64,000 nt of DNA. Origin: an uncultured Acidobacteriota bacterium (GTDB lineage: Bacteria > Acidobacteriota > Terriglobia > UBA7540). A model generated the notes under the pieces. It was not told where the DNA came from. It was given only the letters and a program-made list of their open reading frames with translations, and did not search any database. Made by a program: the position numbers and the translations under genes. Location: the NCBI GenBank assembly GCA_963804995.1, contig CAWDSK010000005.1:1056001-1120000 (forward strand). The letters are read 5' to 3'. Below, piece by piece: positions 21,087 through 40,064 of the stretch. The number at the start of each line of letters is the position of its first letter. The stretch's first letter is position 1.

Positions 21087-21857
21087 ATGGGAATGTCGCA
21101 AGCTGTTTCATCTGATTTTGGGTCCATGGTCGGTCCTCCCCCCTTCATAAAGCTGAGGAGCGGAAGCCCGGGGAGGATGGCCTCACCTGCCTCCAGGCCG
21201 GTTAACTCTCCGAGTATTGCCGGCCCACAGGACAGGGGCAACGAGTGGGCGGTCGTCCAGCAAGCCATTGCTGGGAATGCTGACGCGCAAGAGCGTCTCT
21301 TCGCGGGTCACACACGCCGGCTCTATCGGACTGTATTCGCGCTGCTCAACAATATGGAAGACGCCGAGGATGCACTACAGGAGGGCTTGTGCAAGGCGTT
21401 CACCACCCTCCGCTCGTTTCAGGGGCGGTCGTCTTTCTCCACGTGGCTTACCCGCATCGTCATAAACTCGGCGTTGATGGCCCGCCGCAGGAAGAGCGCC
21501 CATCCAGAAGCTTCCTTGGACGAGATGCTGGATTATCAGCCCAATCAGATGCCGCGCGGATTCGTCGATCCGCGGCCCGACCCCGAAAAACTCTACGCCG
21601 AGACCGAGCTCAATGCACGGGTCGAAGAGCATGTCAGCCAACTCCCGCCCGCACTGCAAATGGCCATTCGACTCCATGCTTTATACGGCTTGTCCGCGCC
21701 GCATTCAGCCGAGGTTCTTGGGGTCTCGGCGAGCGCAATCAAATCGCGAATCTTTCGGGCGCGATTGAAGCTGGCCTGTGGGCTGTACCGATCGCTCGAG
21801 GTTAGCGCGATCGGGCTCATGTTGAGAAAACGTGGCAATCTGAGAGTCAGGGGTTAA
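21087..21857 (+). CDS. ECF-type sigma-70 factor
   Basis: DAEDALQE, SFQGRSSFSTWLTRIVIN (region 2), AEVLGVSASAIKSRIFRAR (region 4); start uncertain. Confidence 0.9.
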   Translation: MGMSQAVSSDFGSMVGPPPFIKLRSGSPGRMASPASRPVNSPSIAGPQDRGNEWAVVQQAIAGNADAQERLFAGHTRRLYRTVFALLNNMEDAEDALQEGLCKAFTTLRSFQGRSSFSTWLTRIVINSALMARRRKSAHPEASLDEMLDYQPNQMPRGFVDPRPDPEKLYAETELNARVEEHVSQLPPALQMAIRLHALYGLSAPHSAEVLGVSASAIKSRIFRARLKLACGLYRSLEVSAIGLMLRKRGNLRVRG

Positions 21858-21875
21858 TGGATCGGGGGGTGGACC

Positions 21876-23783
21876 ATGAACGAACAGGAATCGTCACCAA
21901 GAAAACGCGACCGCGACAACGAAAAGAAGCGCCAGGAGCAAAGTCGGCGTCAGCTTCATTTCGGCATCAGCTACCTGATCACGAGCCTGATTGTCTTGTG
22001 GCTGTTCCAGGTATTCGTCTTAGCTCCCGCCCGGAACACAGAAATTCCTTACAGCGAATTCAAGAAAAAACTGGCGGGGGCTCAAATCGTAAAGGTAACC
22101 ATTGGCGAAAGGGGCATCATTGGTGAGATGAAAAATCCCCAACCGGGCGGAGCTCCTCCGACCGTACCATTCAGTGCCATACCTGCGCCTGCCCCCGGCG
22201 ACCCCAAGCTGATTGAAGATTTACAAAGCGCCAATGTAACGTACCAATTCGAGCACCCGCCGAGTCCTCTGGGTGGTATTTTGCTGAACCTTCTGCCGCT
22301 GCTCCTACTCGGTGTTTTCTGGTACATGGCCTATCAGCAGGCGGGCGGGGCTGCTGGCGGAGGGATGGGCGCCATCTTTGGGGTCGGGAAGAGCAAAGCG
22401 GTCGAGGTCAAGCCCGAGGATGTTACGGTCACCTACAAAGACGTGGGCGGGGCGGATGAAGCCATTGCCGACCTGCAAGAGATCATTCAATTTCTGAAGG
22501 CGCCCGAGCAATTCGGGCAACTTGGCGGGCATATCCCCAAGGGCGTGCTGCTCGTCGGGCCCCCGGGCACCGGCAAGACGCTGCTGGCTAAAGCCACGGC
22601 CGGGGAGGCCCAGGTCTCGTTCTTCGAGACCAGTGGCTCCGAGTTTGTCGAGATGTTCGTGGGCGTGGGCGCCGCACGCGTGCGCGACCTGTTCGAGCAG
22701 GCGCGCAAGGCTGCTCCGGCGATCATTTTCATTGACGAGATTGATGCCATCGGTCAGAGCCGGGGAGGCGCGATACGCATGGGCACCAATGACGAGCGTG
22801 AGCAGACCCTCAACCAGTTGCTGGCGGAGATTGACGGCTTCAAAACTGACACTAGCGCCCCCGTGATTATTATGGCTGCCACCAACCGCCCGGAGGTGCT
22901 CGACCCGGCACTTCTGCGCGCGGGCCGCTTTGATCGGCAGGTCGCCATTGGCAATCCGGATCTCATTGGCCGGGCTCAAATCCTGCGGATTCACAGCAAG
23001 GGTATAAAGCTGGCGGCAGATTTTGACATGGACCAGGCCGCCCGGATGACGGCAGGCTTCAGCGGAGCTGATCTGGAGAATGCCATGAATGAGGCGGCAC
23101 TAGGCGCTGCCCGGCGCAAGGCCGCGAATGTCACGTTGAATGATTTCGAGGCGGCGATCGAACGGGTGATTGCGGGTTCCGAGAAAAAGAGCCGGGTGAT
23201 GAACCCGCTGGAACGCACTACGGTTGCCTACCACGAGTCCGGCCACGCACTGGTGGCGGAACTGGTGCCCCATGGTGAACCGGTCACCAAGATCAGCATC
23301 GTCCCGCACAGCCGTGGCGCCTTGGGCTACACTATCCAAACGCCAACCGAAGACCGCTATCTGCTTTCGGTCGACGAACTGAAGGACAGGATTGCGGTCA
23401 TGCTGGGCGGGCGTGCCGGCGAAAGGGTGGAGTTCGGGACCATCAGCACGGGGGCCAGTGACGACATTATGCGGGCAACTGACTTGGCCCGCCGTATGGT
23501 CACAGAGTTTGGCATGAGTGATAAGCTCGGCTCGGTGCGCTACGCGGGTCAACAACTCCAATACCTGGGGGGATCGGTGGAGGACAATAGCCAGATCAGT
23601 CCGGAGACGCGTCAAGTGATCGACGGGGAAGTCCAGCGTCTCGTGACTGAACAGTACGAGCGTGCTCAGGCCCTGCTGAAGGAGCACCGGGCGGCCCATA
23701 AAACATTGGCCCAGAAACTGCTGAAGCAAGAGACGGTGAGCGGTAGTGACGTGAAAGAGGCACTGGGAAACGGAGGTAAATAG
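21876..23783 (+). CDS. ftsH: ATP-dependent zinc metalloprotease FtsH
   Basis: 2 TMs, [40 protein letters not shown]. Confidence 0.97.
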
Positions 23784-23784
23784 C

Positions 23785-24441
23785 ATGGGGGGTATGATCC
23801 CATTATCGGACGCGTCTCGGGAGCCTCGGAGTTTCCCTGTCGCCACCATGGCTATCATCGTCGCGAACTCGATTGTATTTGTTATGGAACTCATGGGTGG
23901 GGACGCATTTGTAATGAAGTGGTCGGAGATCCCCGCCAACATCGTTGCAGGTCACCACTGGATCACCATCCTGACGGCGATGTTCATGCACGCCGGTTGG
24001 ATGCACATAATCGGCAACATGGTGTTTCTGTGGGCATTTGGCCCAGAAGTCGAAGACGCCATGGGGGTGCCAAAGTACCTGGCGTTTTACCTGCTCAGCG
24101 GTCTGGCGGCTTCTCTGGCGCAGACCGCCATCATGCCCAGTTCCACCGTCCCCAATCTCGGCGCCAGTGGCGCCATTGCCGGTGTGATGGGTGCCTTTCT
24201 GGTTACCTACCCTCATGATGAGATACGCACCGTGCTTCTGTTGGGCTGGTTCACCCGTATAACTTTTATTCCTGCGGCGCTCCTGATCGGATTCTGGTTT
24301 CTCATTCAGCTCTTCAATCAGGTCGGCGCTGTGGCGGACGTGCAGGGGGGTGGCGTCGCTTATGCCGCTCACGTGGGTGGCTTTATCTTTGGGGCAGTTA
24401 CCGCTCGACTTTTTGAGGGCTCCGGGGCCGCCTCCGATTAG
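23785..24441 (+). CDS. rhomboid intramembrane serine protease
   Basis: FMHAGWMHIIGNM, GASG, AHVGG. Confidence 0.95.
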   Translation: MGGMIPLSDASREPRSFPVATMAIIVANSIVFVMELMGGDAFVMKWSEIPANIVAGHHWITILTAMFMHAGWMHIIGNMVFLWAFGPEVEDAMGVPKYLAFYLLSGLAASLAQTAIMPSSTVPNLGASGAIAGVMGAFLVTYPHDEIRTVLLLGWFTRITFIPAALLIGFWFLIQLFNQVGAVADVQGGGVAYAAHVGGFIFGAVTARLFEGSGAASD

Positions 24442-24452
24442 GGATATTCGTC

Positions 24453-26975
24453 ATGTTGTCCGATGCTGCCGCGACCCAGGTTGCGATTACCGGTTTGACG
24501 CCACAAGAAGCTCAGGCTCGGCTCGACCAGTTCGGGCCCAATGAGCCTGCGGCGACAAAGCACCATTCTTTTCTCTCTGATCTCCTGCATGTATTTATGA
24601 ATCCGCTGGCGTTGATTCTGCTGATTGCCGCCATTGTATCGGCATTCACGGGAGACGCGGTAGATGCGGGAATCATCGGCGTTATTGTTCTGCTGAGCGG
24701 GGCTATCGACTTAAGTCAGACGTATCGTTCCCAGCGCGCCGTTGAAGAACTGCGCGATCAGGTTGCCCCGACAGCAACCGTCCTGCGCGGCGGGGAGTGG
24801 AAAGAAATGCCACGGCGTGACGTGGTGCCGGGAGACATCATCCGGCTTTCCGCGGGAGATCTGGTTCCCGCTGACGCACGGCTCTTGATTGCGCGCGACA
24901 TCTATGTCCAGCAAGGAATGCTAACCGGCGAATCGCTCCCCGTCGATAAAGAAGCGACCGGAGAGCCCGCCTCGACCAAAGCGGATGCGCACAACATGGT
25001 CTTTCTCGGCACCTCCATCGTGAGCGGAACCGCAACCGCCGAGGTCGTCGCCACGGGTGCGCGGACCGCCTTTGGCGATATTGCGGCTCGCCTGGCCGCA
25101 CGCCCGGAAGAGACAGCCTTCGATAAGGGCTTGACAAATTTCAGCCATCTCATTGCGCGAACGGTATTCTTCCTCGTTCTCTTCCTGCTTGTCACCAGCA
25201 TTATTCGCCACCGTGATCCGCTTCAATCCCTGATGTTTGCAGTTTCACTAGCCGTGGGCTTGACCCCCGAGTTCCTGCCCATGATTACGTCGGTGACGCT
25301 TTCGAAAGGCGCCGTCGCCATGGCCCATAAGAAGGTCATCGTCAAGCATCTGTCCTCGATTCAGAACCTCGGCAGTGTGGATGTGCTTTGCAGTGATAAA
25401 ACCGGAACGCTCACCGTGGGAACCATGACGCTCGACCGCTCGCTCGATCCCTTCGGGAATCCATCCCTGCGCGCGCTGGAACTCGCCTATCTCAACAGCA
25501 AGTTCGAGACAGGTATCCGCAGTCCGCTGGATGATGTCATCCTTCATCAGTCTCCGTCCAAGATTGACGACTACACCAAGTGCGACGAGATTCCGTTCGA
25601 ATTCGAGCGGCGGCGGCTTTCGGTGGTGGTGGAGCGGCAGGCCCTGAGGGTTCTCATCACGAAAGGTGCTCTGGAAGGAATTTTCCCACTACTCTCCGGT
25701 TGCGAGGTCGAAGGCAAAACAGAACCCATCAGCAAGGACGCTGCCCAGCGCATCCAACAGACGAGCGATGAGCTGAATAGCCAGGGATTCCGCTCTCTGG
25801 CGGTGGCTTACGTGGAAGTTCCTGCACGCCCGGACTACTCCATTGCGGACGAGCGCAATCTCATCCTGGCAGGCTTTTTGAGCTTTGCTGATCCGCCGTT
25901 GCCGGACGCCGCCCAGGTTCTGGCTTCTCTAAAGCAGGATGGGGTTGAGGTCAAGGTCATCTCCGGTGACAACGACCGCGTCACTGCCCATGTTTGCGCG
26001 CAGGTGGGAATCGAACCCGGCCACGTCGTCACGGGCGACGAATTGGACCACACGACGGACCCGGCGCTGGCGCACCTCGCCGCTGAAACGCGGGCCTTCG
26101 CCCGCATTTCCCCGGTGCAGAAGAACCGCATCCTCTTGGCTCTCAAACACAACGGCCACGCCGTGGGGTTCATGGGCGATGGCATCAATGACGCGCCATC
26201 GTTGCACGCGGCTGATGTAGGCATATCCGTGTCCAGCGCTGCGGACGTGGCTCGCGAGTCTGCCGACGTTATTCTCATTGAGCCTGGCCTGCGGGTTCTG
26301 CATGATGGCATCATCGAGGGGCGCAAAGCCTTTGGCAACGTGATGAAGTATTTGCTGATGGGCACCAGCTCGAACTTTGGAAATATGCTCAGCATGGCCG
26401 GGGCTTCGGTCTTCCTCCCGTTCTTGCCCATGCTGCCCACGCAAATCCTGCTGAATAACCTTCTTTACGACGTAGGCCAACTCACCATTCCCACGGATAA
26501 TGTTGACGAGACTTACCTCGCTAAGCCCCAACGATGGGATATCAGCCTGATTCGCAATTTCATGGTGTTCATCGGGCCGATCAGTTCCATCTTCGACTTT
26601 CTAACTTTCTATGTGTTGCTGCATTTCTTCCATGCGAGCGAAGCACAGTTTCATACCGGTTGGTTTGTCGAATCACTTGCAACCCAGACGCTGGTGCTGT
26701 TCGTCATCCGTACATCCAAAAATCCATTCCACAGCCGTCCGAGTAATCCCTTAACCGCAACATGCCTGGCGGTTGTGGCGATCGGGATCTATTTGCCGTT
26801 CAGCCCGGTGGCCGGCATGCTCGGCTTCACGCCCTTGCCCGGGTCATATTTTGCTTTTGTGGCTGTCGCGACGGGAGTCTATCTCTTGCTGGTGGAAGCC
26901 GGAAAACGGGTCCTTCTCCATGGGGCAGATCAGAAGAATTCGGTCAAGCATGGAGATGCCTTAGCGGTCGCCTAA
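24453..26975 (+). CDS. mgtA: Mg2+-importing P-type ATPase
   Basis: TGES, AVGLTPEFLP, DKTGT, GDGINDAP, SSNFGN, WFVESLATQ. Confidence 0.93.
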   Translation: MLSDAAATQVAITGLTPQEAQARLDQFGPNEPAATKHHSFLSDLLHVFMNPLALILLIAAIVSAFTGDAVDAGIIGVIVLLSGAIDLSQTYRSQRAVEELRDQVAPTATVLRGGEWKEMPRRDVVPGDIIRLSAGDLVPADARLLIARDIYVQQGMLTGESLPVDKEATGEPASTKADAHNMVFLGTSIVSGTATAEVVATGARTAFGDIAARLAARPEETAFDKGLTNFSHLIARTVFFLVLFLLVTSIIRHRDPLQSLMFAVSLAVGLTPEFLPMITSVTLSKGAVAMAHKKVIVKHLSSIQNLGSVDVLCSDKTGTLTVGTMTLDRSLDPFGNPSLRALELAYLNSKFETGIRSPLDDVILHQSPSKIDDYTKCDEIPFEFERRRLSVVVERQALRVLITKGALEGIFPLLSGCEVEGKTEPISKDAAQRIQQTSDELNSQGFRSLAVAYVEVPARPDYSIADERNLILAGFLSFADPPLPDAAQVLASLKQDGVEVKVISGDNDRVTAHVCAQVGIEPGHVVTGDELDHTTDPALAHLAAETRAFARISPVQKNRILLALKHNGHAVGFMGDGINDAPSLHAADVGISVSSAADVARESADVILIEPGLRVLHDGIIEGRKAFGNVMKYLLMGTSSNFGNMLSMAGASVFLPFLPMLPTQILLNNLLYDVGQLTIPTDNVDETYLAKPQRWDISLIRNFMVFIGPISSIFDFLTFYVLLHFFHASEAQFHTGWFVESLATQTLVLFVIRTSKNPFHSRPSNPLTATCLAVVAIGIYLPFSPVAGMLGFTPLPGSYFAFVAVATGVYLLLVEAGKRVLLHGADQKNSVKHGDALAVA

Positions 26976-27033
26976 CCATTGTTCCGATGGGCGCTCCGAG
27001 AGCGATGCAGCGGAATGGGTGGGGTAAAGTAGC

Positions 27034-28081
27034 CATGATGCGAAAAGTCATGCCTGCTGCCGCATTGCTGGCCATGATGGCTGTGGCCGCATTGCCCGGC
27101 TTTTCTCGGTCGAATCCTGACCTTGAAACATTCTTTCGGCAGAACATTGGACTGAGTGAGGATCAAATCGCCGCCATCCGAAATGGACATCCGGTCGCGA
27201 AGGCTCTTCCGCCCCGCGTGCCGGCCGAGGTCCTGTTGTTTGGCGCGGTCTTCATCCATGCTGCTCCCGAGGCCTACTTCCAGTTGGCCCGCAATTTCGA
27301 CAGCCTTCGCAAGGTTCCCGGCTTTTTGGCGCTTGTAGTATTCACCGATCCTCCGCAGCTTACTGACTTGCGCGGTTTTGCATTCGACAGCAATGAAATC
27401 AAGGACTTGAAAAGTTGCCAACCCGGCGACTGTCGGATTCAGATGCCTGCGACCTCCATCGAAGAACTCCATCGGTCCGTCGATTGGTCTGCCGACGATG
27501 TGGGTGAACAAGTCAATCAACTCCTGCAGAAGACGGCATTAGAGCTTCTGCTTGCCTATCAGCGCGAGGGCAATCAGGCCCTGGGGATTTATAACGATAA
27601 ACGTGACCCGACCGCGGTTCCCGAGCAGTTCGCATACCTGCTCAGCTACGGCAAGGCCTTGTCAGAGCATGTGCCGGATTTCTACCATTACCTTCTCGTC
27701 TACCCCCATGCGAAGCCCGCGAACTACGAGGAGACGTTCTATTGGGCAAGGGTGCAATTCGGACTAAAGCCGACGTTGCGCATTGTGCACATGGTGAGCA
27801 TGCGTGGGAGCCCCACCGACCCTATAGCATGTGCCATCGCCCAAAAGCAGCTCTATTCGAGCCATTACTTCCAGACCGCGTTGGACCTTTCCATCTGCGT
27901 CCGCGAAGGTGGCGACCGGAAGCGATCCGGCTTCTATCTGATCAAGGCCTTGGGTTCTGAGCAGGCGGGCCTAAGCGGCGCCAAGGGATCGATGGTTCGA
28001 AAGGCTGCGGTGGGCCGGGCGGTTTCAAATCTCCAAAATGGCCTCGCGGTTATCAGGGACACGCTGCAAGGTGACCAGTAG
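27034..28081 (+). CDS. exported hypothetical protein
   Basis: Signal peptide MMRKVMPAAALLAMMAVAALPG; long co-oriented ORF. Confidence 0.75.
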
Positions 28082-28171
28082 GCTCCCGGAGATCGGCCAG
28101 TACGCCATGAACTCGGAATGTAGCAGGTTGGTTCGGTGTTGATATGCCAGTAGCTTACTTCGAGGTGCAAA

Positions 28172-29062
28172 ATGAATCAGTTGGATACCAAGAGCCCCAT
28201 TGCGCCGAAGAAAATCTTGTTGGCCACAGATTTTTCCCCCGCGTCAGAGGCGACGTTACCTTACGCATTGACGATCGCTCACCATTATGGCTCAGAGCTT
28301 TGCGTTGCCCACGTGATCTGCCCGGAGTTCGCAGAACTCATAGCACCTGAGTTGATACCGACGATCCGCCAGGAGGCCCACCGATTCGCACAACAAAACA
28401 TGGAGCGTTTACTCAGTGCCGGACGCCAACGGGGCGTTTCGTGCCACGCGTTAATTGGGGAGGGTGCGATCTGGGATGTTCTTCAGGATATGATTCAACA
28501 AAACGGCCTCGATCTGATTGTTTTGGGGACTCACGGACGTCGAGGACTGCGCAAGTTACTGCTCGGCTCCGTGGCGGAGGAGGTCTTTCGAATGGCGCCG
28601 TGTCCGGTACTCACCGTAGGCCCGAAAACCTCGGAGATACGGTCGATGGATGTTCATCTGGACCACATCCTTTACCCGCTGGAGTTCGTCCCCGATAGAA
28701 GCGATGCCGCGGCATACGCTGTCTCATTAGCTGAGGAATACCATGCCAGGCTGACCATCATGAAGATCTTTGCGGAGATGGTTCCGCCTCCGGACGTGAA
28801 TGCCGCAGTCGAGGAGCCTGTCAGGCACTGGATGGATGATCATATCCCGATGGAATCAGACCTGCACCAGCGCACGAGCTTTGCGCCAGGGTTCGGCCCG
28901 GCGGCGGAAGCAATTCTTAAATTCGCCAGTGATCGCGAGGTAGACTTGATCGTGATGGGCGTGTGCCGTTTGGATCCGGTCATGGCTGCTCACCTTCCCA
29001 AACCTGACACTGCCTACGAGGTGGTCCGCACCGCACCCTGCCCGGTGCTCACCGTGCGTTGA
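28172..29062 (+). CDS. tandem-domain universal stress protein
   Basis: KILLATDFS, DLIVLGTHGRRG..LLLGSVAEEV, APCPVLTV twice. Confidence 0.93.
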   Translation: MNQLDTKSPIAPKKILLATDFSPASEATLPYALTIAHHYGSELCVAHVICPEFAELIAPELIPTIRQEAHRFAQQNMERLLSAGRQRGVSCHALIGEGAIWDVLQDMIQQNGLDLIVLGTHGRRGLRKLLLGSVAEEVFRMAPCPVLTVGPKTSEIRSMDVHLDHILYPLEFVPDRSDAAAYAVSLAEEYHARLTIMKIFAEMVPPPDVNAAVEEPVRHWMDDHIPMESDLHQRTSFAPGFGPAAEAILKFASDREVDLIVMGVCRLDPVMAAHLPKPDTAYEVVRTAPCPVLTVR

Positions 29063-29801
29063 GGTTTAACCAATAGCTAAATTGCAGAGGCCAGCTTTAC
29101 CGGGGCCTATTGTGGATAGCCCGCAAATCCCCATTACTGCCCGAAAGTTCTCAAGAAATCCATAGTAAGCGGTCTAATTTCAATAAGTTAAAAAGATAGC
29201 AATGTTCTCTCAATTTGTTTTCAGCGGTCTATCAAGACGGACGTTGATGTTTGCCATCTTTTAGCCAGCAAACTCCCCAAGTGGAGCCAGAACCTGCCAA
29301 TTCCGTTAGGTCAAAGGTTGACAGATTGGGTGGGCCCGAACAATCCCCTGAACTCATAGCTCATAGCATGTATTTTCAATGATGTTTTCGAATGGCGGGC
29401 CATTTTCGCCTTTTCCAAACTCCCCCGCTTGACATTGAGCACTCAGCGATCGGTCTGAGACTTCGGACCATTAAGCATGCGGGGTCAAGCTTCCTTGGCG
29501 CGCGAACTGGGGGGTTCGCAGGAGCCCAGAATCTTGCGAATTATCGGCGCGGAGAGAAATAACTGTCGAAGTGGTTCATCCGCGGGCAGGGAGTTCGCCA
29601 GCTTCATAATCGTCCCGCGGCTGAGTGCCAAATGGCGTTTCGTCAACTCTCTTGATTTCATCCCCCGCTCGGGGCGCACAGTTTCTGCCTAAAAGAGCAG
29701 ACGTGCTTCGGTTGGTGTATGATGCGCGCTATGGCCTCTCCAGGACGCGAATCGGAGCCCGTGTACGTTTTCACCATGCCCGGCAAAGGTGAGGATGCTT
29801 G

Positions 29802-32800
29802 ATGATGGATAAACGAATCTCTGGATCCTGGCGCACAGCCTGGGAATGCCTGTTGGCCAGTATGGCGCTGGCCGTGTTGACCTTGGTCAGCTTTCGGCTC
29901 CATGCCGGTCCTGCCATGGCCGCCCTCCTCTTCTTTTTTTTGGTCGTATTGATTTCCCTGTGGGCAGGGTTTCTTTCGACGGTCTTTGCCTGCGCCGTGG
30001 CCGCTTTATGCTTTGTCTACTTCTTTACTCAACCGCTTTACCATCTTTGGATGAGCGAGCCCGTGGAAATTGCCGCGACGATTGCGTTCTCGAGTACCGC
30101 CCTAATCATTAGCCGCCTGTTGTCAAGGGTAAGAGAGCGGACCGCCGAGCTCCAGCAGGCCAACGAGCAGTTGCAGGCGGAAATCGCCGAGCGCAGGCGT
30201 GCGGAAGAAGGGGTTCGGCAAAGGGAAGCGGAGCTTCGGCAGCTTATCGACGCCATCCCTCAGCATGTCGTCGTCCTGGATCCGGATGGAAGTTTTCTTT
30301 ACTTGAATCAGGTTGCCCTCGAATACAGCGGTCTAACCCTGGAAGGCAGTTTGGCGAAGGAGTGTGTCCAGCAAAGGCTGGTATGTTCAGTGGGAGTTAG
30401 TCCCACCAAGGCAAGAGTCAGGAGCCTTGTAGCTTGGGTCGCATCCGTGGAGGAAACGAAGCGGATGAAGCTGACCGACAAAGCCATCCAAGGGATGGTG
30501 AGCGAGTCACCGGGCCGTAACGCAAGTGAACCCATAGGTGGCCTCGACAAAAAAATAGATCCGGAGGCCGAGCCCTCTCCTTCGGGGCGAAGGCAGCATG
30601 GCATGACGTGGGCTGACCGAGACGACATGTCACTCCGGCGGGGTGGTAGGGGCAGCACGGTGGCAAGGGCATGTCAAGCAACTGGAGAAACCGTCCTCGT
30701 CCCATCGAGAGATCGGTGGAGCAGGGTAGGCCGTATAACCGGAGACAACGGGAAATCGGCTGACGGCGAGACGGTGGCGGTTAGGCTCGAAGTAGCGACG
30801 AAGTGGGGTAACGCCCATGGAGCGAAGGGGCCTTGCTGCACAGCAAGTCTTGGCCAACATGGGAGGCAGGGGTGAAATGATAAAAGCGCCCTTTAAGCTG
30901 CAAGACCTGCGGCGAAGACTTTACGTCAAGGCGAAGGCTGAACCGACTTGGCGATTCTGGGGGTTGTATGTCCACGTCTGCAAACGAGAAACTCTCTGGG
31001 AAGCGTATCAGCTAGCTAAGGAGAACAAGGGAGCCCCAGGAGTAGATGGGGTCACGTTCCAGGCAATCGAGGCTGAAGGCTTGCAGGGATTTCTCGAACA
31101 GCTTCGCGAGGAGCTGGTGCAGCGGAGATATCGACCTCGACGGCTGCGGAAGGTAGGGATTCCGAAGGAGGGCGGAAAGGTTCGCCAACTTTCGATTCCT
31201 TGCATTCGCGACCGAGTGGTCCAGGGAGCGTTGAAGCTGATCCTGGAACCGATCTTTGAGGCCGATTTCCAACCGGGATCGTTTGGCTACCGGCCGAAGA
31301 AGTCAGCCCACGCTGCGATTCAACGCGTCTCGGAGGCAATCGTGCGGCACATGACCTTTGTCGTTGATCTCAACTTGCGTTCCTACTTCGATACGGTTCG
31401 ACATTCCCTCGTACTGGAGAAGGTGGCACGGCGAGTGAACGACACCGAGGTCCTAGGGCTGCTCAAACTGCTGCTGAAGGCGTCGGGGAAGCAGGGTGTT
31501 CCGCAAGGCGGGGTGATTTCGCCCTTGCTCAGTAACGTGTACCTCAATGAGGTGGACAAGATGCTGGAAAAGGCGAAGGAAGTCACCCGCGAGGGGCGGT
31601 GGATGAACGTCGAATATGCCAGATTCGCCGATGATCTGGTGGTTCTGGTGAACGCTCATCCCCGGCAGGCCTGGCTTCGCAAGGCAGTGGAAAAGCGGCT
31701 ACGGGAGGAGTTGGCCAAGCTGCAGGTTGAGGTGAACGAGGAGAAAAGCCGGAGGGTGGATCTTCAGCAAGGAGAGAGTTTCGGATTTCTGGGGTTTGAG
31801 TTCCGTCGCATCCGCAGTCGGCGGGGCCGATGGATGCCGCTGCGTACGCCGCGGGGCAAGAAGCGGACGGCATTGCTACGCAAGCTCAAGCTAGTTTTCC
31901 GGAGCTATCGCTCTCAGCCTGTGAGGGGGTTGATCGAGCAGATCAATCCCATTCTGCGCGGCTGGGTGAACTACTTTGCGGTCGGGCACTCCAGCCGGTG
32001 CTTCTCGTATATCCGCGACTGGGTAGAGAAGAAGATTCGGTGCCACTTGGCGAGGGCCAGACAACGCCCAGGCTTCGGATGGAAGCGGTGGCGTAAGGAG
32101 TGGCTGTATGGCACGCTCGGGCTCTTCCACGAGTACCGCGTGGTCCATCAGTCATCCTCCTGGGCAGCCGCCCCGACCCGATAGGCCCCATAACCCTTGC
32201 CGTGAAGTGTGCAGGAACGCGTAGTGCGGGAAATCCGCACGCTACGTGTGATGTGGCGGGAGCTGGAAACGGGGCTCGGAGCTTTCTCGGAGCCGCCGCG
32301 CCAGTTCCCGACCCTACCTCTCTGACGAAGCTCTTTCACCCCGACGATCTGGAAAGAGTAGTGGGGGAACGCCAGCAGACGATTTCACGCGGCGTGCCAT
32401 GGGATGCGGAAGTGCGGATACGCGGAAAAGACGGCGACTACCGCTGGTTCATAATCCGTCTCAACCCTCTGCGGGACGAGCAGGGACGCATCCTTCGGTG
32501 GTATGGCACAAGTACCGACATCGAGGATCGCAAGCGGGCCGAAGAAACCTTGCGGGGGCAGGCAGATCTTCTCAATCTCACGCACGACGCCATTTTTGTA
32601 GCGGATATGGAGGGGGTGATCAAGTACTGGAATCATGGCAGCGAGGAGCGGTACGGCTGGACCGCCGAGCAAGCGGTGGGCACAGTTGTTCACGACCTGC
32701 TGAAGACAGTCTTCCCGGCGCCGCTGGAGCAAATCAAAACGGAAGTGATACGTAAAGGTCGCTGGGATGGCGAACTTGTGCATACCAAGAAGGACGGAAC

Positions 32801-35699
32801 CCGGGTAGTGGTGGCGAGCCGTTGGTCTTTGCAGCGGGACAAGCAAGGCGCGCCAGTTGCCATCCTGGAAACCAACAACGATATCACGGACCGCAAGCGG
32901 GCGGAGGAGGCGTTGCGTCGTTTGAACCGCGAACTGCGAGCGATCAGCAACTGTAACCAGATCCTCCTGCGCGCCACTGACGAGCAGAGCTTGCTCGAAG
33001 AAATCTGCCGGATCGTCTGCCAGGAGGCCGGTTACCGCATGGCGTGGGTGGCCTATGCCGAGCACGACGAGGCCAAGAGCGTGCGCCCTGCCGCGTGGAC
33101 CGGGACCGAGGAGGGATATCTCGCAAACCTCGGCATTACTTGGGCCGACACGGAGCGCGGGTGGAGCCCTACCGGGACAGCCATCCGCAGCGGGAAAAGT
33201 TGCTGCATTCAGGATTTCGCCACGGATCCCCGCCTGGCGCCCTGGCGGGAGAGCGTTTTGCAGCACGTTTTTCTTTCCGGCATCGCCCTGCCGCTTAAGG
33301 ACGAACACGCGAGCGCCTTCGGCAGTCTTAGCATTTATTCCGCACAGCCCAACGCTTTTACGTCGGAAGAGATTCGGCTGCTGGAGGAACTGGCTGGCGA
33401 CCTGGCGTTCGGCATCATCACCCTGCGATCGCGGGCCACTGGCGAACGGGCAGAGCTGGCTCTGCGGCAGAGTGAGGCTTATTTAGCGGAATCGCAGAGG
33501 CTGACCCACACGGGTAGTTGGGCTTTGGATTTGGCCAGCGACAAGTATGTCTACGTTTCGGAGGAGGACTTTAGACTTTGGGGATTTGATGCGCAAGAGG
33601 GTTTACCGTCGCGGGAAGCAGTTTTCCGACGAATCCACCCGGAGGATCGGGACAAGATGAGAGCGAGCTTTGAGAAGTCGCTTCGCGAAAAAGTAGATTC
33701 CTCCGACGAGTACAGGATCGTGCTGCCCGACGGAACGGTCAAACATGTTCACACCATCCGCCACCCTGTCCTGAATGGCGCGGGAGACCTCGTTAAATTG
33801 GTGGGCACATCAGTGGATATCACGGAACGCAAACAGGCGGAGGAAGCGCTGCGCGAGAGCGAGACGCGCTTTCGCACCTTTGTGGACCACGCCGCGGACG
33901 CCTTCTTCATCCTGGACTTCGAGCAAGGAACCATTATTGATGTGAACCGGAGCGCCTGCGAGAGCCTTGGTTATACGCGGCAGGAACTGATCGGGACGAT
34001 GGGGCTTGCCTTCGACCAGAACGTGGATCGAGCGGTTACGGAATCGATCGCGGAGCGGACGGCGGCGGGCGAAACCGTGATCGACACGCACTGGCATCAG
34101 CGCAAGGACGGGACGCTGTTCCCTGTGGAAGTACACACCAGCCAGTATTGGCGGGGAGGCCGTCGCTTCCTGCTGAAGGTAGCCCGGGACACCAGTGACC
34201 GTTTGCGGGCCGAGGAAGCGCGCGCCTACCTCGCCTCCATCGTGGAGTCCTCCGACGACGCGATAATCGGAAGATCCATGGAGGGGATCATTCAATCCTG
34301 GAACCGGGGCGCGGAGAGGCTCTATGGGTATACGGCCCAGGAGGCGATTGGCCAGCCGATCACCCTGGTGATTCCACCCGACCGTGCCCAAGAATTCGTG
34401 AGTAGCGACCGCCTCAAACGGGGAGAGCCGATTCAGGAGTTCGAAACCGTTCGGGTGGGGAAAGATGGCCGGCGAATCGATGTGTCAGTCATTATCTCCC
34501 CTATGAAGGACGCCGCCGGTCGCGTGCTCGGCGCCGCGACGGTCGCCCGCGACATCACCGAGCGCAAGCGCGCTCAGGAGGCACTGCGGAGAAGCGAGGC
34601 TTATCTGGCGGAAGGGCAGCGGCTGAGTCACACAAGCAGTTGGGCTTTCGATTTGGCCAGCAACAAGTATATCTACGTTTCGGAGGAAAACTTCCGAATT
34701 TTTGAAATGGATGCACAAGAGGGTCTACCGAACAGGGAAGCGATTTCCCGACTTATCCACCCGGAGGATTGGGACAGGGTGAACGAGGCCTTTGAGAAGT
34801 CGCTCCGCGAAAAAGTAGATGCCTCGAGCGAGTTCAGGATCGTGCTGCCCAGCGGAACGGTCAAACATCTTCAGGCGATCCGGCACCCAGTCCTGAATGA
34901 TGCGGGAGACGTCGTTGAACTGGTGGGTAGCGTGATCGATATTACGGAACGCAAGCGCGCCGAACAAGAGCGCGAGAGGCTGCGCCAACTCGAGGCGGAT
35001 CTCGCGCACCTCGACCGCGTAAGCATGATGGGGGAACTGGCAGCCTCCATCGCCCACGAAGTCAACCAGCCGCTTTCGGGCGTCGTGGTCAACGCCAATG
35101 CCTGCTTGCGTTGGCTGGCGGGAGATTCGCCCAATCTTGACGAAGCCCGGGAGACTGTCCGGCGTATCGTCCGCGACGGGAAGCGGGCGGGAGACGTGAT
35201 CGCCCGCATTCGGGCTCTGGCGACGAAAACAGCCACCACCAAGGAACGGCTGGATATGAACGAGGCCATTCGGGAGGTCGTGGCTTTTGCCCAGGACGAA
35301 GTCCGCAGGAATCGTGTGACCCTGCGAACCGAATTCGCGCCTGATCTCTCCCTGGTGTGGGGCGATCGAGTGCAGCTTCAGCAGGTGGCCCTTAACCTGG
35401 TCATGAACGCGGTCGAAGCCATGAGCAGCGTGGAAGAGCGGCCGCGAGAGCTGATCGTCAGAACGCAAAACGATGATGCCGGCCAGGTGCGGGTTACCGT
35501 CCAAGACTCGGGGATGGGGCTTGACCCGCAGAGCATGGAACGGATTTTTGATGCTTTCTACACCACCAAGCACGGGGGAATGGGCATGGGGCTCTCGATT
35601 AGTCGTTCCATTATCCAGAATCACGGGGGCAAGCTATGGGCGGTGGCGAATGACGGGCCAGGCATAAGCGTTCAGTTTACTATTCCCAAGTACCAATAG
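29802..35699 (+). CDS. multi-sensor histidine kinase (DUF4118-like TM, 6 PAS, GAF, HisKA, HATPase) split by a group II intron; join(29802..30361,32318..35699), ~1313 aa
   Basis: Spliced junction reads LAK-D-SLTKLFHPDD in frame; IAHEVNQP H-box, QVALNLVMNA, DSGMG, FYTTK.GGMGMGL. Confidence 0.92.
30362..32317 (+). mobile_element. group II intron, 1956 nt
   Basis: 5' GTGTG, 3' CCCTAC; domain V GAACGCGTAGTGCGGGAAATCCGCACGCTACGT at ~32215-32250; EBS1 TCCTTC (30578-30583) in a GCCC/GGGC loop complements exon IBS1 GAAGGA (30356-30361). Confidence 0.93.
30877..32184 (+). CDS. ltrA: group II intron RT/maturase without endonuclease domain
   Basis: GAPGVDG, IPCIRDRVVQ, SFGYRP, PQGGVISPLLSN, RFADD, maturase INPILRGWVNYF. 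Confidence 0.95.
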   Translation: MIKAPFKLQDLRRRLYVKAKAEPTWRFWGLYVHVCKRETLWEAYQLAKENKGAPGVDGVTFQAIEAEGLQGFLEQLREELVQRRYRPRRLRKVGIPKEGGKVRQLSIPCIRDRVVQGALKLILEPIFEADFQPGSFGYRPKKSAHAAIQRVSEAIVRHMTFVVDLNLRSYFDTVRHSLVLEKVARRVNDTEVLGLLKLLLKASGKQGVPQGGVISPLLSNVYLNEVDKMLEKAKEVTREGRWMNVEYARFADDLVVLVNAHPRQAWLRKAVEKRLREELAKLQVEVNEEKSRRVDLQQGESFGFLGFEFRRIRSRRGRWMPLRTPRGKKRTALLRKLKLVFRSYRSQPVRGLIEQINPILRGWVNYFAVGHSSRCFSYIRDWVEKKIRCHLARARQRPGFGWKRWRKEWLYGTLGLFHEYRVVHQSSSWAAAPTR

Positions 35700-35708
35700 G
35701 AGTCCCCT

Positions 35709-36338
35709 TTGCCGGAGCCTGACGCATTAGTCTTGGTTGTGGACGACGACGTGTCGGTGCGCGAGGCTTTGGAAGGTTTGATTCGGTCCGCGGGATTGAG
35801 GGCCGAGACCTTTCGCTCGGCGCAGGAGTTTTTGGCTCGCCCGAGGGCCGATGTGCCAAGCTGCTTGGTATTGGATGTTCGGCTGCCGGGTCTGAGCGGG
35901 CTCGAGCTTCAGAAGCGCATGGCCGAGGCCAACCTGGAGATTCCGATTATTTTTATTACCGGCCACGGCAATGTTCCGGCTGCGGTGCAGGCCATGAAAG
36001 CGGGTGCGCAGGAGTTTCTTACCAAGCCCTTCACGGACCGGGACCTGTTAGACGCGATTCAAAAGGCGATAAATTGCGATCGGGTGGCGCGCCGGCATCA
36101 GGCAGAAATGCGCGAGTTGCGCGGCCGGTATGAATCCTTAACGCCGCGCGAACGAGAGGTTATGGAGCTGGTGGTCTCCGGGTTGCTGAATAAACAAGTG
36201 GCCGCTGAACTGGGGACCAGCGTGATTACGGTTAAAATTCAGCGCGGCCAGGTTATGCGCAAGATGCGGGCCGACTCTTTGGCCGACCTGGTGAGAATGT
36301 CCGAGAGCCTGGGGATACGGCGCGTGAAGAAATTGTAG
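35709..36338 (+). CDS. FixJ/NodW-type response regulator (REC + LuxR HTH)
   Basis: [37 protein letters not shown]. Confidence 0.93.
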
Positions 36339-36424
36339 GTCCGGGCCGCCCTCCTCCCCCCAGACGAACTTAATACCAAGGTGTGATAGACAAGGCCACT
36401 TGCCAGGGTGCTAAATGAACCTGT

Positions 36425-36814
36425 ATGGCGAAGGTTCCTCTAATTACGGTAGTTGATGACGACGAGTCGGTCCGTGAATCCCTGGACGGTTTATTGAGGT
36501 CCGTGGGGTTTGCGGCGAAGGTATTTGCTTCGGCCGAAGAGTTCTTGAATTCGGACCATCTGAGCGATATCGACTGCCTGTTGCTGGATGTGCGCCTGCC
36601 GGGCATGAACGGGATCGAACTCCACCATCACTTGGTGGCCAATCGCAGTGAGGTACCCGTTATCTTCATCACAGCCCATGGATCTGAGGAAGGGGTGCGC
36701 TCCCAGGCTTTGCGGAACGGCGCGGTGGATTATCTGATCAAGCCACTCAGTGAAGATACGGTGTTGAATGCGGTCCAGAAGGCTCTGAGCGCGAAGCAAC
36801 ATACCCAGGGATAA
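36425..36814 (+). CDS. single-domain response regulator
   Basis: VDDD, LDVRLPG, ITAH, IKP; no output domain. Confidence 0.92.
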   Translation: MAKVPLITVVDDDESVRESLDGLLRSVGFAAKVFASAEEFLNSDHLSDIDCLLLDVRLPGMNGIELHHHLVANRSEVPVIFITAHGSEEGVRSQALRNGAVDYLIKPLSEDTVLNAVQKALSAKQHTQG

Positions 36815-36915
36815 TCTTAATTCAAGAACCTATAACCATAGGTTATTGCGGGATTGATTAAACGCAGTGAGGTTTTCCTGTCAAACCCATTGGACAATCG
36901 TAGGGAGGCTTTCCC

Positions 36916-38394
36916 ATGAGTGACAGAGGCGCTCCAATCTACTTGGTAGACGACGATGTATCGGTGCGGGAATCGGTGGGAAGTCTGATTCGCTCCGCAG
37001 GATTCCGGGCGAAAACGTTCGCGTCGGCGCAGGAGTGTTTAGCCGGCCTGCAAGCTGAACAGCCGAGCTGTTTGGTACTGGATGTGCAGCTCCCGGGGCT
37101 AAGCGGACTCGATCTTCAACAAGAGCTTGCCAAGGCGGATGTGCAACTCCCGATTATTTTCCTGACCGGCCACGGCGACATTCCCATGTCCGTACGCGCC
37201 ATGAAAGCCGGCGCCCTGGAGTTCTTGACCAAGCCCTGTGACGGTGAAGATCTACTGAATGCTATCCGGCAGGGTATCGCTCGTCATCAGGCAGCCCGGC
37301 AGCCAAGTCAAAACCTGGCGCAGCATAGTTTTGACGGCAGCATCGGTGCGAGGGCAGAATCAAGCGATAAACTCGCGCCGGAAAAGCTCTACCTGGGGGA
37401 AGAAATCTGTCGGGAGGCGAACTTCGAAGGCATCGTGGGACAGAGTCCAGCCCTCCGGGAGGTGCTGAAACTCGTCGAAGTGGTGGCGGCAAGCGATTCG
37501 ACCGTGCTCGTGTTGGGAGAGACGGGCACCGGCAAGGAACTCATTGCGCGCGCTATTCACAATCGCAGCCTGCGCAAGCAACGAGGTTTTGTCAAGCTCA
37601 ACTGCGCCGCGGTGCCCAGCGGCTTGCTTGAGAGTGAACTGTTTGGCCACGAGCGCGGCGCCTTCACGGGCGCCATCACGCAAAGGGCCGGGCGGCTCGA
37701 AGTTGCAGATCAGGGTACGCTGTTCCTGGATGAGGTCGGGGACATCCCTTTGGAAATCCAACCGAAACTGCTGCGCGTATTGCAGGAGCGGGAATTCGAG
37801 CGATTGGGCAGTACGCGGACGAAGAAAGTTGACGTTCGGGTCGTGGCGGCAACCCATCGTGCCCTGGAAGAAATGATCGTGGAGAAGCAGTTTCGCCTCG
37901 ATCTCTACTACCGTCTGAATGTTTTCCCCATTCATATTCCACCCTTGCGCGAACGTCCGGAAGACATTCCGCTGCTCGTTTGTCATTTCGTCCGGCAATT
38001 CGCCCAGCGAATGAACAAGACCATTGATGGGATTTCTTGCGACACGATGGAGGCGCTGATTCGATACTCATGGCCGGGGAACATCCGGGAGCTGCAAAAC
38101 GTTATCGAACGATCAGTGATTGTTCACGTAAAAGGGAACCTCTCAGTCAAGCAGAGCTGGCTTGCTCACGAATGCCTCGCCACCGGATCGGCAACAGCGT
38201 CGTCCTTCAGAAAGTCGGTGAGGGAGGAGCGAAAAGTGATTGGCGCGGCCTTGGCCGAGACGCGCGGCCGAGTGTCGGGACCGTTGGGCGCGGCCGCCAA
38301 GCTGGGCATTCCTCCTTCGACTCTGGAATCGAAGATCCGAGCGATGAAGATCAACAAGCATAGCTTCAAGACCTTCAGTGCCGTTCCAAGCTAA
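36916..38394 (+). CDS. sigma54-dependent enhancer-binding response regulator (REC + AAA+ + Fis-like HTH, FhlA-like C-terminus)
   Basis: [57 protein letters not shown]. Confidence 0.96.
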
Positions 38395-38576
38395 TGAATC
38401 TCGGGGCGTTTGACTTTATTGCCTACCCGTATCGGGCGGAGGATGTGTGGATTCTAGGCACAGCGCTCCGCAGACGCCCTGAGCCTGCGCGGAAACCCAA
38501 GACTAACTCGGGGCGCGGAACCTCCGCCCAACCTTACTCGCCCAACCTTACTCCCCCCAGCTATCCAATCTAGGTA

Positions 38577-38669
38577 TTCGCGAACTTCGTGAATTCGCGA
38601 GAAGATTGCGGCGGTGAGATGCGCGAACCTTAGCGTTTTCAAGAGGTTGCAATTGGCGCTTGCATTGCA
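38577..38669 (+). promoter_or_regulatory. sigma54 promoter cassette 7
   Basis: TTCGCGAA-c-TTCGTGAATTCGCGAG (38586-38601); IHF-like TTTCAAGAGGTTG 38637-38649; GG 38655-38656, GC 38667-38668. Confidence 0.9.
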
Positions 38670-38741
38670 TTGATGAAGCTGAGGGACTGCCAGGAAGGTG
38701 TGAAGTGGGTTGTCCAGTTTTTAGCTAGCGAGGAGAAAAAC

Positions 38742-39506
38742 ATGTTACGCAAGTTAAGATACATTGTGGTGTTGGTCGTAGTTATGGCCGCCGTGCTTCT
38801 AGTGGGCGCGTGCAAGAAGAAGGTGGCAGCGCCACCTCCGCCGCCGCCCCCGCCGCCCGCACCGCCAGCCCCCACCGTCACACTGACTGCCGAGCCCAGC
38901 ACTATCGAACGTGGACAATCCGTCACCCTGAGCTGGACTTCGGAGAACGCCACCGACTTGGACCTGCAACCCGGGATCGGCAAGGTTCAAGCCCAGGGGT
39001 CACAGACCGCCACACCACAGGACTCAACCACTTATACCCTGACGGCCACCGGTCCGGGTGGAACCAATACCGCCACGGCGCGTGTGACGGTCACCATTCC
39101 GCCTCCGCCTCCGCCACCACCGCCGGCACCCAAGCCCGCGGAGTTGAGCGAGGAGCAGTTGTTTGAACAGTTCATCAAACCTGCGTACTTTGATTTTGAC
39201 AAGGCTGACATCCGCTCGGATGCGCAAGCAGCACTTACCTCCGACGGCGATTTCCTGAAAGAGCACACGAGTATCAAATTCACCATTGAAGGGAATTGCG
39301 ACGAGCGCGGGAGCGAAGAATACAACCTGGGCTTAGGCGATAGGCGCGCGACTTCGGCCAAGAATTTCCTGGTCAACCTCGGGGTGACAGCCGATCGGAT
39401 TTCCACCATTTCCTATGGAAAGAGCCGGCCGGTCTGTAGCGAGAGCACCGAGGAGTGCTGGCAGAAGAACCGCCGAGCAGGGTTCAGGCCCGGCACCAGT
39501 CAGTAG
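38742..39506 (+). CDS. pal: peptidoglycan-associated OmpA/Pal-like lipoprotein with poly-Pro linkers and an Ig-like domain
   Basis: Lipobox VGAC, YFDFDK, IEGNCDERGSEEYNLGLGDRRA, NRR. Confidence 0.9.
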   Translation: MLRKLRYIVVLVVVMAAVLLVGACKKKVAAPPPPPPPPPAPPAPTVTLTAEPSTIERGQSVTLSWTSENATDLDLQPGIGKVQAQGSQTATPQDSTTYTLTATGPGGTNTATARVTVTIPPPPPPPPPAPKPAELSEEQLFEQFIKPAYFDFDKADIRSDAQAALTSDGDFLKEHTSIKFTIEGNCDERGSEEYNLGLGDRRATSAKNFLVNLGVTADRISTISYGKSRPVCSESTEECWQKNRRAGFRPGTSQ

Positions 39507-39536
39507 GACTCAACCTTTCACCAAAGGAGAGACCAT

Positions 39537-40064
39537 ATGAAGAAGCAGTCAGAGTCAATAACGCAGCCGGTAAAGGAAGCCATGCCCATGAAGTTGCTCC
39601 CTGCCAGCAATCTGTTGCATCGTATCGAGGATCTGTCCAACTCGATTGCCCGGCGTGCCTTCGAGATCTTTGACGGCCGCGGGCGCGGGCATGGGCACGA
39701 CCTTGAAGATTGGCTCCGGGCAGAGTCCGAGCTGTTTCATCCGGTGCATCTCGACATCGCCCAATCGGATTATGCCTACACCGTTCATCTGGAGGTGCCG
39801 GGCTTCAGCGCCAAAGATCTCGCGGTCGGCGTAGAGCCCCATCGTCTTACCGTCAGTGGCACGCGTGAAGTCAACGAAGAACGTAAAAGCAAAAAGACCA
39901 TCTACTCGGAACACTGCCTGAACCAAATCTTCCGCACGATTGACTTGCCTGGCGACGTTGACTCGTCGAAGGTCACGGCCACACTCGAGGATGGAGTGCT
40001 GGAACTCTCGATGCCGAAGACCGCCAAGGCGGAGAAGGTCCGGGTGGAAGAAAAGCCGGCGTAA
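39537..40064 (+). CDS. Hsp20/alpha-crystallin small heat shock protein
   Basis: EVPGF, FRTIDLP, ATLEDGVLELSMPK; N-terminal IARRAFEIF..RG..HGHDLEDWLRAE segment. Confidence 0.92.
   Translation: MKKQSESITQPVKEAMPMKLLPASNLLHRIEDLSNSIARRAFEIFDGRGRGHGHDLEDWLRAESELFHPVHLDIAQSDYAYTVHLEVPGFSAKDLAVGVEPHRLTVSGTREVNEERKSKKTIYSEHCLNQIFRTIDLPGDVDSSKVTATLEDGVLELSMPKTAKAEKVRVEEKPA

Follow-up and report, generated by a model that had tools for sequence, protein, structure and literature searches.

A group II intron within the sensor kinase gene of an acidobacterial two-component operon: a recent insertion at a look-alike target site

The stretch of DNA analyzed here, called the window in the following, comprises 64,000 nucleotides (nt) of an uncultured soil bacterium of the Terriglobia, phylum Acidobacteriota (positions 1,056,001 to 1,120,000 of the forward strand of contig CAWDSK010000005.1, assembly GCA_963804995.1). 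Near its middle, the gene for a sensor histidine kinase is divided into two exons by a complete group II intron of 1956 nt (30362..32317), which lies on the plus strand, as do the gene itself and the other features described below unless stated otherwise. Exon 1 (29799..30361), in which translation probably starts at ATG 29802, codes for a DUF4118 membrane domain, a coiled linker and the N-terminal part of the first PAS domain (PAS1); Pfam places DUF4118 at residues 18-120 and PAS_8 at residues 146-188. Exon 2 (32318..35699) encodes the remainder of PAS1, more PAS domains, a GAF domain, and the kinase domains HisKA (1.8e-10) and HATPase_c (7.1e-23), as assigned by Pfam and by colinearity with an ortholog in a second genome of the same genus (G018). 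Only 10 nt past the kinase stop codon begins a gene for a response regulator of the LuxR/NarL type (35709..36338), which has the REC-GerE architecture (Response_reg and GerE in Pfam) and is the probable cognate partner of the kinase. Before any database search was made, a reading of this DNA from its letters alone (the sequence-only reading) had proposed that an intron makes the kinase dependent on splicing, and the claims of that reading are taken up below where the results bear on them.

The boundaries of the intron are fixed by the six full-length copies found in the same genome, all of which align over query positions 1-1956 and part from one another in their flanks exactly at those ends. 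The element starts with GTGTG at 30362 and finishes with ...CCCTAC at 32317, that is, the 5′ GUGYG and 3′ AY boundary motifs are present. The core of domain I (30388..30525) is recognized by the Rfam family RF02003 (group-II-D1D4-4) with 125.9 bits against a gathering score of 49, over model positions 1-138 of 138, and this is the sole Rfam family above its gathering score in the entire window. Domains V and VI were located not by Rfam but by folding the last 133 nt of the intron and by conservation in relatives. In the predicted fold, domain V (32217..32249) is a 33-nt hairpin with a lower helix of 8 base pairs (bp), the triad CGC, a 2-nt bulge (CG) and an upper helix of 5 bp. This hairpin is kept with compensatory changes across about 90 related loci, the triad being AGC in many relatives or CGC. 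Domain VI (32255..32313), for which the basal helix was paired manually in addition to the fold, is a long hairpin with a bulged A at 32311, situated between a C-G and a G-C pair and 7 bases before the 3′ splice site. Among the same loci its inner part differs in length and its 3′ strand is conserved, and the 3′ ends of the relatives follow the pattern ...CCAGT(T/C)C(C/T)CGACCCTAC.

The intron also carries an open reading frame (ORF; 30817..32184) for a reverse transcriptase (RT)/maturase, in which RVT_1 (6.3e-30) and GIIM (1.7e-15) were matched and no endonuclease domain was detected. The protein scores 363.7 bits on the NCBIfam equivalog TIGR04416 (group II intron RT/maturase; cutoff 300), and its best relative of solved structure in a PDB search is the GsI-IIC RT (6ar1, 2.4e-52). 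Translation is more likely to start at ATG 30877, preceded by GGGAGG, than at the mechanical start of the frame at 30817. Protein relatives with 64-93% identity are found in Terriglobia, Bryobacterales, Bradyrhizobium and other soil lineages. For an intron-encoded protein (IEP) lacking the endonuclease domain, the classes that remain are A, C, D, E and F (PMC3552965). PDB, NCBIfam and plasmid searches return only the generic label "group II intron RT/maturase" for this IEP, and the literature on Bradyrhizobium introns yielded nothing useful for assigning the class. As far as the tested features go, the element is, at the level of sequence, a mobile group II intron. Its ends, the RF02003 match, the RT/maturase, domains V and VI and the six copies all agree with the sequence-only reading, which had placed a group II intron in sense orientation at 30362..32317.

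The position of the intron relative to the reading frame is clear. It splits an Asp codon as GA|C, where exon 1 supplies GA and exon 2 supplies C, and the computed intron-less frame has 1314 codons with a single, terminal stop, so that exact removal does restore the frame, as had been supposed. When exon 1 was searched in 60 relatives, one close ortholog was found, with 93% identity, in G018 (96% complete), where the kinase gene is an uninterrupted open frame of about 1194-1195 codons (G018:C23). The intron-less coding sequence aligns with it straight across the junction, with 91.4% identity and 2 gaps over spliced nt 3-2465. The junction falls at residue 188 of this ortholog, whose PAS1 spans residues 145-249, and the earlier placement of the intron in frame within the first PAS domain is borne out in this way. 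The empty site of G018 has the same sequence over the 16 bases that precede the insertion point and the 6 that follow it, no exon bases having been lost or duplicated, and there is no intron match longer than 63 nt in G018. The regulator genes downstream are syntenic there, with 83-89% identity. A search for intron-less alleles had been suggested as a check of the sequence-only reading, and this uninterrupted, syntenic ortholog is what it brought to light. Apart from the intron, the two genes differ in length (1314 against about 1194 codons), and the alignment skips spliced nt 2466-2790, approximately one PAS unit (window 33000-35000; locus L022); by this alignment, their numbers of PAS repeats differ by one.

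A run from a peat metagenome (X2; labelled "DNA?", 90% likeness) showed further joins across the site. In one of its contigs, only two other letters separate 30361 from 32320; in a second, eight letters separate 30361 from 32326; and a loose end at 30361 runs into exon-2-like sequence. The joins belong to related organisms whose homologs lack the intron, and they do not represent an empty allele of the present strain.

How the intron came to this site can be considered from its target recognition. The intron would recognize its target mainly through two pairings, one between exon-binding site 1 (EBS1) and the last six bases of the 5′ exon (intron-binding site 1, IBS1), the other between EBS2 and a T-rich stretch two bases further upstream (IBS2). 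EBS1 (TCCTTC, 30578..30583) occupies a loop closed by CCC/GGG, and IBS1 (GAAGGA, 30356..30361), which forms the last six bases of exon 1, is complementary to it at 6/6 positions. This pairing had already been pointed out in the sequence-only reading, and covariation in relatives now confirms it. The same loop position was taken in the relatives and identical cases were collapsed, giving 54 unique EBS1/flank pairs; 12 loci with an unmatched loop pattern or an atypical 5′ end are left out of this set. Altogether 27 distinct EBS1 hexamers covary with the 5′ flanks, 38 of the 54 pairing at 6/6 positions. The mean number of EBS1-IBS1 pairs is 5.63, compared with 3.10 after shuffling of the flanks among introns, and none of 5000 shuffles reached the observed value.

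The second pairing is less firm. EBS2 is most likely CAAAA (30548..30552), judging from its place in the loop 30546-30559 of the hairpin 30540-30569 and from its complementarity to the TTTTG of targets. Its probable partner at the kinase site is TTTG (30350..30353), which has one T fewer than the usual TTTTG. Closer relatives keep the A-rich EBS2 loop, and their targets keep TTTTG 0-2 bases upstream of IBS1; in the relatives of 70% identity (G003, G022) no convincing EBS2 partner was found. The sequence-only reading had chosen the correct loop, but its register, GACAAA against TTTGGC, fits the family pattern less well than CAAAA against TTTTG. The first base of the 3′ exon (+1) is C at all five independent sites in the genome. 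As for the class of the intron, the probable presence of EBS2 and the homing-type targets speak against class C under the usual criteria.

These features of the site bear on the idea that the intron is not in the kinase gene at all, and that a 2-kb repeat with six copies was misplaced between the two kinase halves during assembly. The genome is metagenome-assembled and the repeat is multi-copy, and no independent run bridging the exon-intron joints was found. However, a chimeric join would not be expected to yield exact intron ends at a site provided with IBS1, the spacer, most of IBS2 and the +1 C, nor to leave the exon bases without loss or duplication relative to G018, and an assembly artefact is therefore scarcely credible here.

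The usual target of the intron is seen at its other sites. The 5′ flank AGTTTTGGCGA(A/T)GGA followed by C is common to three of the four other sites in the genome (G000). With at most one mismatch, the 15-mer target occurs 11 times in the genome, 3 of the occurrences being occupied and 8 empty. On the 5′ side, several of the empty sites resemble one another over a longer stretch, and this likeness breaks off directly after ...GGACA. The sequence at C1:140375 matches the flank of the C5:1125512 copy up to the insertion point and no further; 2 nt beyond, another repeat sets in. Antisense ORFs adjoining the motif at C1:140375, at C6:308631 and in the C6:863273-863851 region gave recurrent weak matches to HTH_32 and HTH_21, and the one at C1:140375 also gave a weak match to rve; only HTH_21 at C1:140375 just exceeds its Pfam cutoff (28.4 against 28.1 bits). 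From these repeat boundaries and domain matches, the usual target is interpreted, with moderate confidence, as the outer end of a repeat resembling an insertion sequence (IS).

Two other identities of the motif were considered and rejected. If a small gene began with the motif (ATG GAG TTT TGG...), its frame would be only 10-41 codons long, and such frames are not conserved. As a member of an inverted repeat, the motif has no convincing reverse-complement partner within 4 kb. The empty targets, at G000:C1:140375-140391 and seven other places, mark the ends of repeated segments. It was also observed that two of them adjoin a conserved pair of ORFs (297 aa and 725 aa), the 725-aa ORF being a large serine recombinase (Resolvase, Recombinase, Zn_ribbon_recom), and that an AbiEi-like ORF starts at the C1:140375 site.

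The kinase site shares IBS1, the GC spacer and the +1 C with this usual target but has TTTG in place of TTTTG. On this comparison of sequences, it is a chance look-alike of the usual target, and the intron would have inserted into the kinase gene since the site nearly copies the target motif by chance. The 13-mer TTTGGCGAAGGAC also occurs at two other places in the genome, both of them unoccupied. Another unoccupied near-target lies in the window itself, on the minus strand at about 45336-45350 (G000:C5:1101350). It reads AGTCTTGGCGAAGGA followed by T, with one mismatch in the IBS2 part and a +1 T instead of C.

The age of the insertion can be judged from the other copies. G000 is a metagenome-assembled genome of 7.55 Mb in 9 contigs, 92% complete. 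Of its six full-length intron copies, one matches the kinase copy at every position, and the rest depart from it at 1-3 of 1956 nt. Because six copies with 0-3 differences share related targets, the intron family is regarded as young and mobile. Intron matches longer than 500 nt at 80% identity or more were found in 6 of the 28 other genomes of the genus, two of which contain remoter full-length relatives (69-72% identity). The insertion into the kinase gene itself is also recent, because the copies are near-identical and G018, of the same genus, has an empty site in conserved synteny. The copies differ by at most 0.15%, whereas the kinase differs from its ortholog by 8.6%; therefore, decay of the exons would not yet be visible, and intact exons are no evidence of function. 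The sequence-only reading had stressed that both exons are free of stops. This observation stands, extended by the single open frame of the intron-less gene, but with such a young insertion it has no bearing on whether the gene functions.

Several other traces of the intron family were noted. Besides the full-length copies, G000 contains a 496-nt 3′ fragment and two 39-nt matches. The fragment (G000:C5:1233825-1234321, minus strand) corresponds to the last quarter of a related intron with 92% identity and has the same CCCTAC end; to judge from its sequence, it is a truncated older copy. In another genome, a relative at G001:C230:10866-11592 (locus L026) is 98% identical over nt 1-589 and joined directly to nt 1812-1956, an internally deleted derivative without the ORF. 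Two of the full-length copies in G000 abut head to tail with 0 bases between them (G000:C6:293628-297539, minus strand; locus L133 3629-7540). They differ at one position (919), which marks them as distinct copies. A plausible origin of this pair is a second insertion into a site already occupied, at its 5′ junction, where IBS1 and IBS2 are kept and the +1 base is G, not C; the pair may also be an assembly artefact. A literature search on head-to-tail tandem group II introns found nothing relevant, which is not proof that none is in print.

What, then, does the intron do to the kinase gene? The favored reading, with a probability of about 0.75, is that a young mobile intron sits at a look-alike site, that the kinase can be made only from spliced RNA, and that splicing does occur, with the output of the gene lowered. 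That full-length kinase needs splicing had been claimed at the outset, and the geometry of the frames agrees. The first stop in the exon-1 frame is TGA 30873..30875, 171 codons into the intron and 1 nt before ATG 30877, so that translation of unspliced RNA would give a fragment of 187 kinase residues with a tail of 171 intron-encoded residues, which ends at 30875. Only precisely spliced RNA would now yield the complete protein. Splicing in the kinase gene is expected on two grounds: the copy here differs little or not at all from copies whose movement required splicing, and all of its parts are intact. The output is expected to be lower than that of an intron-less allele because of the weaker IBS2, ribosomes reading into domains I-III, interference between intron and mRNA, and possible polarity. 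In unspliced transcripts, for example, the untranslated exon-2 RNA could exert polarity on the response regulator gene. The resident group II intron Ll.LtrB was shown to have lowered host mRNA in Lactococcus through EBS-IBS contacts by which spliced exons are reopened (PMC6003770).

The same weaknesses can be carried further, to an intron that splices too poorly in the kinase exons and leaves a plain knockout, a recent neutral or mildly harmful accident which has not been purged. This is unlikely, although it deserves more weight than the other alternatives. The insertion is too young for decay, so the intact exons do not oppose it. IBS2 is one pair shorter than in the usual target, the two other sites with the same 13-mer stay empty, and 171 codons are open through domains I-III, where ribosomes could unfold the ribozyme. 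Furthermore, bacterial group II introns lie mostly outside cellular genes (PMC4424553). On the other hand, IBS1 pairs at all of its six positions, the +1 base is C as at the other sites, and every part of the ribozyme is intact. The copy is identical to another one and at most 3 nt away from the rest, at least some of which must have spliced to move.

Still, several observations weigh against the favored reading of a spliced kinase at a look-alike of an IS-like target. RF00029, the Rfam family of domains V and VI, was not matched in 30200-32500 even at E≤1. EBS2 can form 4 pairs at the kinase site, where IBS2 is weaker than in the usual target. The Pfam hits behind the IS-like assignment of that target are mostly under the curated cutoffs, and the assignment rests for the remainder on repeat boundaries. 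The junctions between kinase and intron are seen in one assembly only and in no independent run. In the search of sequencing runs, at most 0.32 of the sampled words occurred in any one run; of the four runs compared, two were RNA (X15 and X16). Their cover is confined to 30335-32366, mostly at 90-95% likeness, and the exons are bare except for stray matches to PAS repeats. The reads come from related introns of other organisms, and since the cover reaches no exon, it says nothing on splicing either way.

The frame that leads from exon 1 into the intron raises a further question. In the kinase exon frame, the intron has no stop over its first 511 nt, which is unusual for its composition: a given frame was open in 0.125% of 20,000 mononucleotide shuffles, and any frame in 0.375%. 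It can be imagined that the wiring runs in both directions, kinase output needing splicing while ribosomes started on the kinase arrive at TGA-A-ATG and drive RT/maturase translation, splicing and mobility. If true, it would be a natural feedback between a stress-signalling gene and a retroelement. This arrangement is improbable. The 511-nt frame is shared by only 1 of 75 relatives, the 99%-identical G001 copy, and in the next closest relatives a stop occurs at nt 251-254. The frame is thus ruled out as a conserved feature and is probably a lineage accident due to chance.

At the other end of the intron, a frame is open from GTG 32100 into exon 2, from which the sequence-only reading had conceived a soluble kinase, devoid of the membrane domain and translated from unspliced RNA. 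The open tail is there as a mechanical ORF. The protein is next to impossible to credit: none of the three GTG codons in this frame (32100, 32202 and 32253) has a Shine-Dalgarno match at -18 to -4, AAGGAG directly abutting 32100. The second of them lies just before domain V and the third between domains V and VI. The product would start in the middle of PAS1, behind up to 73 junk residues, and the open tail belongs to every copy of the intron and is not specific to the kinase site.

The kinase gene is an unusual place for this intron. Of the five independent sites in G000, only the kinase site lies deep within a long sense frame; the others are at or beyond gene ends, one of them at the 3′ end of a GntR/FCD gene in antisense orientation. 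Among 84 related loci examined, 53 include the two ends of the intron with flanks of 300 nt or more; the flanks are about 2 kb, so that very long frames would be seen only in part. In 16 of the 53, the best open frame has at least 60 codons on both sides of the junction (10 in sense and 6 in antisense orientation), which is about the chance level for GC-rich DNA, and the largest sense frame across a junction has 126+206 codons. Bacterial group II introns are for the most part located outside housekeeping genes, with recA, groEL and cyanobacteria named as exceptions (PMC4424553). A literature search on group II introns in histidine kinases found nothing relevant, which does not prove that none has been reported.

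Several known introns can be compared with the present one. RmInt1 of Sinorhizobium meliloti, a bacterial class D intron with no endonuclease domain, homes into the insertion sequence ISRm2011-2. The kinase intron resembles it in an RT/maturase without endonuclease domain, a target read mainly by EBS/IBS pairing, a probably IS-type usual target and several near-identical copies. It differs from RmInt1 in that this copy lies in a cellular signalling gene instead of the IS-like target and in that the usual target would be the outer end of a repeat, antisense to a transposase-like ORF. Ll.LtrB, which resides in the ltrB relaxase gene of Lactococcus lactis, is a IIA intron with an endonuclease domain. 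It too is an in-frame intron on whose splicing the output of the host gene depends, but its host gene belongs to a mobile element, whereas the kinase intron is in a cellular gene.

Endonuclease-less introns such as RmInt1 home mostly outside functional genes (PMC4181065). Introns in recA of Geobacillus kaustophilus (Chee and Takami 2005) and groEL of Azotobacter vinelandii (Adamidi et al. 2003) are cited in PMC4424553, and EcKTE56.groEL of E. coli sits at the groEL stop codon (PMC12584367). Like these, the kinase intron is in sense orientation in a chromosomal gene that is not mobile, and the gene product would depend on splicing. The groEL introns, however, form a specialized lineage which has the gene as its regular target, at the stop codon, whereas the kinase intron occupies an accidental look-alike in the middle of a domain of an acidobacterial sensor kinase. 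Group II introns inside genes are thus a rare but documented kind of event, to which the kinase case adds a further example, and the discovery is modest in this respect. Its use may lie elsewhere. Bacterial group II introns are seldom found inside cellular genes, and one proposed reason is the cost to the host gene. Here, an intron-bearing allele and the empty site of a sister species form a clean natural pair in the same two-component operon. The intron family is evidently active, with a usual target that can be identified. If it could be taken into the laboratory, the locus would be suited to measuring, in the native context, the cost of an in-gene insertion and the effects of a weakened IBS2 and of ribosome run-through on splicing.

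The kinase gene belongs to a series of stress-type genes on the same strand (21087-40064, plus strand), including three response regulators. In order, they encode an extracytoplasmic function (ECF) sigma factor, FtsH, a rhomboid protease, a P-type ATPase, a tandem-Usp protein directly upstream of the kinase, the kinase, the LuxR-type response regulator, a single REC protein, an NtrC-type activator, an OmpA-family protein and Hsp20. Such a setting (ECF sigma factor, FtsH, Usp, Hsp20 and the regulators) provides a context for an adaptive switch, in which splicing would depend on conditions and would have been recruited to control the two-component system together with its regulon. This is very unlikely, more so than the two-way coupling of translation and splicing considered above. 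The insertion is very recent and in one genome only, and the single close ortholog is without the intron. Likeness to the usual target already accounts for the site, and there is no sign of selection for the arrangement. The suggestion of the sequence-only reading that the entire regulon hinges on splicing is an extrapolation from this locus, which shows no more than a LuxR-type response regulator gene next to the kinase gene. The order of the genes for the kinase, the response regulator, the single REC protein and the NtrC-type regulator is conserved in G018 as well.

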